From positions 259,966,001-260,002,959 of the forward strand of contig CM097885.1 of NCBI GenBank assembly GCA_044892525.1: DNA of 36,959 nt, in the 5' to 3' direction. Below, piece after piece: positions 29,119 to 31,031 of this stretch. The stretch comes from Schmidtea polychroa (lineage: Eukaryota). Both the position numbers and the translations under genes were made by a program. A model generated the notes under the pieces. It had not been told where the DNA came from and did not search any database. It saw nothing but the letters and a program-made list of their open reading frames with translations. The first letter of the stretch is position 1; each line of letters starts with the position of its first letter.

Positions 29119-29577
29119 ATAGAAAGGCAACCGGAAATTCCTAATAATCAAATATTTTTTAGCCCTTGCCTAAATGAAAATAAATGAAATATGAACAAAA
29201 ACAGATCAAAAGTAACCACAGAAAATACATGGACAATTATGCAAATATAAACAAAACAATTCATTGAAAATATATCGGACAATGAAATGATAAAATCATT
29301 AGCCAAGAAATGTGAGTAGATAGTAGTGGGCCATCCAGATCAGGAGCTCCCTGCATCAATTATACCCCCCTCCCCCCGGGGAAAAATTTTTTGAAAAATA
29401 AAAAGTCAAGGTCAAGGTCAAATTTTTAATAAAAGGTAAAGGTCAAGGTCATTTCTTTTTTAATTAATTGATCCAGAGGGCTCATACTTTTTTTCATCCC
29501 AAAAATTAATGTTCCCGCCAACAGATTTTATTGAACGATAGCTCATCTTAAAGAAGAAGTTATAGATTCCTATCATT

Positions 29578-29729
29578 CGATGACTCATCATAGTTTTAGG
29601 ACGATGACTCATTAGATGACTAATCATATTTTTGTAGAACGATGACTCATCATATTTTTAGAACAAAGACAGTGACTCATACTATGACGCATCATGTTTT
29701 TAGAACGATGACTCATACGATGACTCATA
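29578..29729. promoter_or_regulatory. Subterminal array of TGACTCA (AP-1/GCN4-like) motifs
   Basis: TGACTCA at 29581, 29605, 29643, 29673, 29709 and 29721, plus variants TGACTAA (29617) and TGACGCA (29685). The function is inferred. Confidence 0.55.
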
Positions 29730-30552
29730 TTTTTTTTTCAAAATATTATTAATTGATCCAGATGGCCCATACATTTTTTCATCCCAAAAATTATTGTTCC
29801 CACAACAGATTTTATTGATTGATAGCTCATCTTAAAGCCCAGTGCAAAACCTTTCTAATGAGATATAGAGATATTTATAATCATTATTAATTTTAAAAAT
29901 GTTAAGGCATGCNNNNNNNNNNNNNNNNNNNNNNNNNNNNNNNNNNNNNNNNNNNNNNNNNNNNNNNNNNNNNNNNNNNNNNNNNNNNNNNNNNNNNNNN
30001 NNNNNNNNNNNNNNNNNNNNNNNNNNNNNNNNNNNNNNNNNNNNNNNNNNNTAATTTCTACATCAATTTCATGATTTTCAACATTTTCATCATTTGCATG
30101 AATATTTTAATAATTTTCAATATTTTTCAATATTTCTTTACTATTATTATTATTTTAAATTATTATTTTGAAAGTTTTTCATCTTATTATTATTATTAAT
30201 ATTTTCAAAGAATTATTATTATTATTTGCAAAGTTCAAAGTATTATTATTTTTGCAAAGTTCTAATTATTATTTTTTTTTGGAAGTTTCATTATTATTAT
30301 TTACTTACTTATTCATAAAACTTAATTTCTACGTCAATTTCATGATTTTCAACAATTTCATCATTTGCATTTTTTAATAATTATCAATATTTTCATAATT
30401 TTCTACATTTTCACGATTTTCAACATTTTCATGATTATTTCAGGAACTTTTTCATCAAATATTGTTCAAAGTATTATTTTCAAAGAATTATTTTCAAAGT
30501 TTTAATCAATATTATTATTATTAATATTATTATTATGATTATTATTATATAT

Positions 30553-30697
30553 ACTCCGAGTTTATCCGAAAAAATTTTCTAGTTAGAAATGGCCGGGTAA
30601 CCTGCTAAGTCACTGTCGTGTCAGGAATAGTGGATTGAAATTATTCCACTTGAACAAAATATTCCTAGTAAGCGCAAGTCACTAGCTTGCGCTGATT
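30553..30697 (+). pseudogene. 18S rRNA fragment (3' major domain, about V8-helix 43 region)
   Basis: GGGTAACCTGCT..TCGTGTCAGGAATAGTGGATTGAAATTATTCCACTTGAACAAAATATTCCTAGTAAGCGCAAGTCACTAGCTTGCGCTGATT aligns to conserved eukaryotic SSU GGGTAACC...GATTGCAATTATT...TGAACGAGGAATTCC.AGTAAG.GC..GTCA..AGCTTGCG.TGATT. The stems GTGGA/TCCAC and AGCGCAAG/CTTGCGCT are retained. Confidence 0.85.
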
Positions 30698-31031
30698 TTA
30701 GGATATATAGGATACCTATAGCACATCTTAAAGGTCTTGCATTGTGCTTTAAGATGAGCTATCGTTAAATAAAATCTGTTGGCGGGAACATTAATTTTTG
30801 GGATGAAAAAAAGTATGGGCACCCTGAATCACTTAATTAAAAAAAACGAAATGACCTTGACCTTGACCTTTTATTTAAAAAAAAAATTTTTTACCTTCGG
30901 GAGGGAGGGGGTAGGGGGTATGTGATCCAGCGGAGTCCTGATTTGGATGGCCCACTACTATCTACTAATGTGAATGTCAATGATCCATTATATTTTATAT
31001 TCACGCAGTCTTTTCTGACCTCTCTTTATTG

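Follow-up and report, generated by a model that had tools for sequence, protein, structure and literature searches.

The DNA analysed here, called the window throughout, is a stretch of 36,959 nucleotides from Schmidtea polychroa (contig CM097885.1, positions 259,966,001 to 260,002,959, of the GenBank assembly GCA_044892525.1, which is 781 Mb in length and of low GC content). A small gene-less element occupies 29315-30966 of the window (1,652 bp) and several other features are recognisable in its neighbourhood. On the minus strand at 31479-36646 lies a Gypsy-type LTR retrotransposon whose gag (395 aa) and pol (1,201 aa) frames are open and whose 245-bp LTRs are identical to each other. The retrotransposon has no evident TSD, its right flank runs into different sequence, and it is missing from an older duplicate of the region that is described below. 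Decayed protease and RT frames at 13934-15343 (plus strand) show about 72% DNA similarity to this LTR element, in inverted orientation. An exon of a calcipressin (RCAN) gene is found at 20014-20400 on the minus strand (Pfam PF04847, E 3e-25), and broken frames at 24658-25539 on the plus strand match a Monjiviricetes-type viral fusion glycoprotein (PF24664, E 4.5e-16 and 1.7e-22) and probably represent the env-like gene of a retroelement that has decayed. An inverted match of 313 bp at 100% identity between 4237-4549 and 36647-36959, which runs off the end of the window, probably belongs to the local segmental duplications. The parts of the small element and its target site, in window coordinates and from left to right, are as follows.

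29309-29314, no strand: left TSD, AATGTG, abutting the left end; present as a single copy at three empty paralogous sites
29315-29553, plus strand: left terminal head and first arm unit, with the AGTAGA end motif, GC-rich palindromic modules and AAGGTC repeats; 81-90% matches to many other ends in the genome
29560-29740, plus strand: sub-terminal block of short repeats with six TGACTCA motifs, part of the family arm by motif and family-arm comparison
29748-29870, plus strand: repeat of the inner arm unit, of the kind that normally stands in tandem in the long arms of the family; 29748-29837 and 29463-29553 agree at 91%
29871-30580, plus strand: AT-rich rest of the left arm, including the N run and ending in the conserved ACTCCGAGTTTATCCG motif, by family-arm comparison
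30576-30697, plus strand: 122-bp sense fragment of the 18S rRNA gene (approximately 18S positions 1494-1615); 115/122 identical to the rDNA array of the genome
30698-30701, no strand: TTAG, four bases that belong neither to 18S nor to the arm in the junction alignment
30702-30966, minus strand: outer 265 bp of the right arm, truncated; the family-arm match extends inward to 30702
30967-30972, no strand: right TSD, AATGTG, abutting the right end; present as a single copy at the same three empty sites

Insertion of the element and its duplicates

The termini of the element, AGTAGATAGTAGT from 29315 and its reverse complement to 30966, each occur once within the window, and the outermost 23 bases are identical between both ends. 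An earlier note on this DNA, made from its letters alone, had described an intact AATGTG TSD, and this was confirmed on both sides of the element (with the ends fixed, all six bases would agree by chance with a probability of approximately 7e-4, given the local base composition). At three unfilled paralogous sites the left flank is followed by one AATGTG and then by the right flank, so it was the insertion that created the 6-bp duplication. These empty sites are a clean proof both that the element inserted and that 6 bp were duplicated as it did so.

TIRs of 220-240 bp had also been claimed, and 29315-29553 does match 30747-30966 in inverted orientation (239/220 bp, 76.8% over 250 alignment columns), with both arms matching the longer arms of the family to which the element belongs. 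Global alignment of the outer 230 bases of both arms gave 182 matches, 18 mismatches and 6 gaps, a disagreement of about 9% plus gaps that lies mostly in variable modules. With these modules excluded the arms are nearly identical, with 1 mismatch in approximately 74 bp (29480-29553), and the modules also differ between the arms of long copies of the family (6.6% in copy A, 7.1% in copy B and 6.0% in copy C). The end itself, AGTAGA, has 5/6 bases of (AGT)2, the sixth base being A, and the same start is found on the coding copies A and F; AGTAGT is the start of the commonest local subfamily. The 18-base head of the element has 6 matches genome-wide, which represent 3 copies with 2 ends each, all from one insertion.

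The element contains a run of 139 N in the window and the earlier note had cautioned that this gap could hide most of a full Polinton. The caution proved unfounded: the same place in the assembly is of the same length and has no N, and two duplicates of the element without N measure 1,634 and 1,643 bp and have the same TSD, so that the run hides no genes. The absence of polB and integrase, as the note had it, was upheld, since reading frames stay open for at most 78 aa in the window copy and 91 aa in a duplicate. At 1,652 bp and without genes, the element has neither the pPolB, integrase, ATPase, protease and capsid genes nor the length of 15-20 kb by which an autonomous Polinton is recognised.

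The number of copies was determined from the junctions, the flank and the core. A 27-mer across the right junction and a 28-mer from the altered 18S sequence, each with up to 2 mismatches allowed, were both found at 4 places only, genome-wide. A search with the right flank gave 7 full-length paralogues among 40 scored candidates, 4 filled and 3 empty, and in a DNA search with the core, in which 40 of 2,736 candidates were scored, 4 full-length matches were followed by rDNA alone. Of the other three filled copies, two have at least 16.7 kb of flank in common with the window copy at 99.9% identity or more. The third, which is older, has the right flank in common and is without the neighbouring LTR element, 16 bases of the left end and the left flank. 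The possibility that the three near-identical matches are independent insertions is ruled out by these flanks in common; there was one insertion and it was later copied only by segmental duplication. Filled and empty flanks differ at 16-19 of approximately 470-512 bases, the filled copies among themselves at 0-1. No public RNA run was listed with the element, an absence that is uninformative. The earlier description of the element as ‘MITE-like’ is apt in that it is small, non-coding and bounded by TIRs and a TSD, but an amplified homogeneous family behind it finds no support. Its junction is found at four places that are all segmental duplicates, and it is therefore non-autonomous but not an amplified MITE.

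Lopsided arms around an 18S rDNA fragment

The element is asymmetric and lacks the interior of a Polinton: 1.27 kb of one arm is followed by the 122-bp sense 18S rRNA fragment and this by 265 bp from the opposite arm. The long arm occupies positions 29315-30580, and each part of it matches arms of larger TSD-flanked copies (90-91% for 30052-30580). The TGACTCA motif occurs 7 times in the whole window and 6 of these lie in the sub-terminal block of this arm. The internal copy of the inner part of the TIR that the earlier note had called extra is real but is an ordinary arm unit; larger family members have several such units per arm, so it is not special.

The sequence between the arms, 30576-30697, matched a tandem array of 11-12-kb period at 94% in a DNA search of the genome. 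This array was identified with Rfam as 18S and 5.8S rDNA (the donor 18S scores 1712.9 bits, with 5.8S downstream) and is found at the end of C3 (144.55-144.62 Mb) and on the unplaced contigs C240, C263, C265, C281 and C357. The piece in the window is itself recognised as SSU rRNA (RF01960, E 6.6e-8), under the gathering score as expected for a fragment. The filler thus originates from host rDNA. A further Rfam match, to sRNA71 (E 0.47), was dismissed as chance.

The donor sequence is the same in all 26 rDNA loci examined and the fragment differs from each of them at 6-7 positions, with 5 changes common to all four copies of the element and 7 present in the window copy. Roughly 2 changes would be expected, and the excess holds only if clustered changes are counted singly (there is a cluster of four; P 0.007 against 0.18). 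A genome search found neither a diverged 18S donor nor a longer progenitor carrying 18S, and no rDNA was found in the other collected loci of the Polinton family. At the left junction the arm and the 18S piece overlap by 5 bases, of which the final 2 (CT) are exactly common to both.

Coding and gene-less relatives in the genome

A degenerate 17-base head pattern gave 1,931 and 1,912 matches in the genome (approximately 3,800 ends) against 38 and 56 for a reversed control. This points to roughly 1,900 elements, with a part of the heads internal or unpaired. The earlier note had proposed a search for a partner with the same ends, and two coding copies, A (18 kb, TSD TGCCAC) and F (45 kb, TSD CCTATA), belong to the end family of the element. 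The ORFs of these copies include matches to Pox_A32 (E 3.6e-6) and to the rve integrase (E 7.6e-6, below its cut-off). A long ORF of copy F has four family-B polymerase motifs and DNA_pol_B_2 look-alikes at 0.94-0.95, and the capsid ORF of a related copy has double-jelly-roll capsid look-alikes at 0.97. Pfam returned no polymerase or capsid match for the family ORFs, and a PDB sequence search with the polymerase ORF returned nothing significant. In copy F (C2:101983046-102028293) the region of the RING finger and pPolB is duplicated in inverted orientation at 99.6% identity. The assignment to the Polinton type, made in the note from the window alone, is therefore sound, as the 6-bp TSD is a true one and the ends are common to copies with core Polinton ORFs. 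Since 6-bp TSDs, long TIRs and simple AG/AGT end motifs define Mavericks, as summarised in PMC8097293, the element is a gene-less Polinton derivative and not an autonomous Polinton.

A survey of other TIR pairs, which the note had likewise proposed, showed that 6-bp TSDs recur. Perfect 6-bp TSDs flank 22 of 24 head pairs chosen from the searches, the other two having one or two mismatches; among 12 further head pairs 8 have a perfect TSD, 1 has one mismatch and 3 have no TSD, and none of 8 additional loci yielded a TSD-bounded pair. At C1:7376793-7385911 seven Polinton heads stand in tandem at a spacing of approximately 1.5 kb with identical upstream sequence, a satellite-like array of the element end.

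The short TSD-flanked relatives measure 48, 249, 448, 474, 714, 2,395, 2,595, 2,779, 3,787 and 3,972 bp, and the breakpoints differ in each. The best other full-length match to the 448-bp relative is at 76% with different breakpoints, and sequences 73-80% similar to the interior of the 2.4-kb relative, whatever their boundaries, cover most of that query. The shortest TSD-flanked member seen, at C1:16505271-16505318, is an end-to-end palindrome of two Polinton heads, 48 bp in all, flanked by a perfect duplication of GTTATG. Gene-less copies in the range of 7-15 kb, by contrast, have 2.5-4.4 kb of interior in common at 85-95% across different TSDs. Most of these large copies (L089, L090, L092, L035, L093/94, L095/96, L127/128 and L129/130) have perfect 6-bp TSDs. 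It is in the first six of those listed that the non-coding interior is alike to this degree at different sites, and some are nearly perfect palindromes (L095/96, 99.3% over 7 kb). The occurrence of large gene-less copies at many sites means that trans-mobilisation operates in this genome, and among the elements examined mobilisation in trans is evident only for large ones.

An unselected sample of 10.8 Mb contained 36 inward-facing head pairs, 21 of them spanning 8-18 kb, 5 larger, 2 of 2-5 kb and 8 of less than 2 kb; the last 8 have no TSD. These eight head pairs, of 0.5-1.5 kb and on C1, were considered as a MITE family and rejected, as they have no TSD and are, in the 3 resolved cases, the centres of 13-kb palindromes with polymerase only. 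These palindromes (C1:299243-312516, C1:2663675-2677166 and C1:8110449-8123897; 13.3-13.5 kb) have one pPolB frame per arm, AGTAG-type outer ends of their own and perfect 6-bp TSDs, and at the centre of each approximately 1 kb of the element's family arm lies between two inward-facing heads. The first of them lies within another Polinton, with the integrase ORF on one side and the capsid ORF on the other. Pair D (approximately 2 kb) was rejected as a TSD-bounded short element since it has no TSD. Arms that differ by 5% or more were seen in 7 of 8 short elements against 6 of 16 long ones (Fisher p 0.03 in a non-random sample), a weak hint that the short elements may be decay products. Size correlates weakly with age (Spearman -0.39, p 0.058), and arms of less than 230 bp inflate the trend.

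Origin of the element and comparison with known systems

The explanation that we favour, with a probability of about 0.58, is a deletion by break repair in a single event after a larger copy had landed at this site. The family integrase would have placed a larger copy, coding or gene-less, at the site; a double-strand break within it would have been followed by resection, and end joining would then have captured an rDNA fragment, with 2-5 bases of microhomology on the left and 4 bases added on the right. The remnant would not have transposed since. With only one insertion site, the element most likely represents the scar of a single repair rather than a miniature that spreads. Deletion in place is in agreement with junctions that have short microhomology and few added bases, as break-captured fragments do, and with the finding that the short relatives each have breakpoints of their own while the large gene-less copies have their interior in common. 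Against it, a longer element is present at the site in none of the 4 filled paralogues, although these have a single ancestor. The time left for such a deletion by the differences between filled and empty flanks, and by the near identity of the filled copies, is also short, the excess of changes in the 18S piece depends on how clustered changes are counted, the trend of size with age is weak, and the large gene-less copies at many sites show trans-mobilisation at work in this genome.

A less probable explanation, which still deserves to be taken seriously, is that the short form predates integration. A free replicating Polinton genome may have lost its interior, taken up rDNA and been inserted once by integrase supplied in trans. 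Such mobilisation in trans is what the earlier note had proposed, here limited to a single event. This would be consistent with both ends and the TSD being intact, although they would stay intact under deletion in place too, and with a head that is unique to this insertion. It also draws on the lack of a long allele among the paralogues, on the fold-back or rearranged interiors of other short relatives (L120, L121), which are of a kind that template switching would make, and on the 48-bp pure palindrome with its perfect TSD. The single insertion site speaks against it. The arms are more unlike than the age of the insertion predicts, which fits ends that were already unlike when the element inserted, but outside the variable modules they are nearly identical and the modules vary in long copies too. 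The timing arguments are thus ambiguous between shrinkage in place and insertion of a miniature. That the element belongs to an amplified MITE-like family of 1.65-kb Polintons is very improbable. There are four copies, and the end family is very abundant, but the flanks are common to all four, the junction patterns match nothing else genome-wide in the assembly and the core search led, among the candidates scored, only to these copies and to rDNA. We give equally little credence to the rDNA junction being an assembly chimera. No public contig was seen across the junction of 18S and arm (such a hole proves nothing), and polishing could account for those single-base differences between the four copies in which the rDNA letter is restored. 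The junction was, however, assembled separately in each of four copies, of which one is older and lacks the neighbouring LTR element, and the fragment departs from every one of the rDNA units examined.

A single remnant of this sort is of little weight in itself, being the Polinton equivalent of a Ds2-type deletion derivative, although the rDNA piece marks it uniquely, so that any later jump could be recognised. Of wider interest is the genome-wide contrast in which large gene-less copies recur at many sites and every short copy examined is a one-off; this contrast in size bears on whether the spread of Polintons needs a packaged, size-limited genome. It is possible, though we consider it rather doubtful, that free Polinton genomes shed defective miniatures of 48 bp to a few kb that are able to capture host DNA and are integrated in trans, and that only molecules near full size amplify. 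In that case the element would document directly how a replicating Polinton took up host DNA, and the range of sizes would reveal both the smallest end that can be integrated and a lower size limit for spread, such as packaging in a capsid would predict.

Non-autonomous Polinton families are catalogued in Repbase. A search mainly of the open literature found no account of rRNA capture by a Polinton, and titles and the beginnings of abstracts gave no work devoted to miniature Polintons, which supplementary repeat-library tables could list. In the anole, non-autonomous Polintons are apparently absent according to PMC3014272. Most Maverick copies are described as defective fossils, intact sizes being constrained near 17 kb, and the end motif of Polintons in vertebrates as (AGT)2 or (AG)3 (PMC8097293). 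The element resembles Polintons/Mavericks, as these are summarised in PMC8097293 and PMC5718144, in its perfect 6-bp TSD, long TIRs and AGTAG-type end, and its ends are those of copies in the same genome with pPolB, RVE integrase, A32-like ATPase and capsid ORFs. It differs from them in its size of 1.65 kb against 15-20 kb (about 17 kb +/-10% in vertebrates), in being gene-less with lopsided arms, and in an end that is AGTAGA and not the vertebrate (AGT)2. With MITEs it has in common that it is small, non-coding and bounded by TIRs and a TSD, whereas MITEs, as characterised in PMC2817404, form homogeneous high-copy populations and the element is one insertion with a unique junction.

The filler has a parallel in the host fragments that are captured at double-strand breaks with microhomology, for which rDNA is a donor in Dna2-deficient yeast, as summarised in PMC11724301. 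The short host fragment, the microhomology at the junction and the rDNA donor are alike in the two cases; here the fragment lies in the interior of a transposon, in an animal germ line, and is accompanied by a large deletion. There is also a likeness to the Ds-del/Ds2 elements of maize as described in PMC3260210, in which there is an internal deletion, the ends and sub-terminal repeats are kept and host DNA serves as filler. The parent of Ds2 is a hAT cut-and-paste transposon and that of the element is virus-like and self-synthesising; the filler of the element is rDNA, and mobility in trans is demonstrated for Ds2 (PMC3260210) and not for the element. By this analogy the element is a Polinton by its ends that would work as a Ds2-type deletion derivative. 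The rDNA filler is the unusual part of a Polinton derivative that is otherwise of a known kind.
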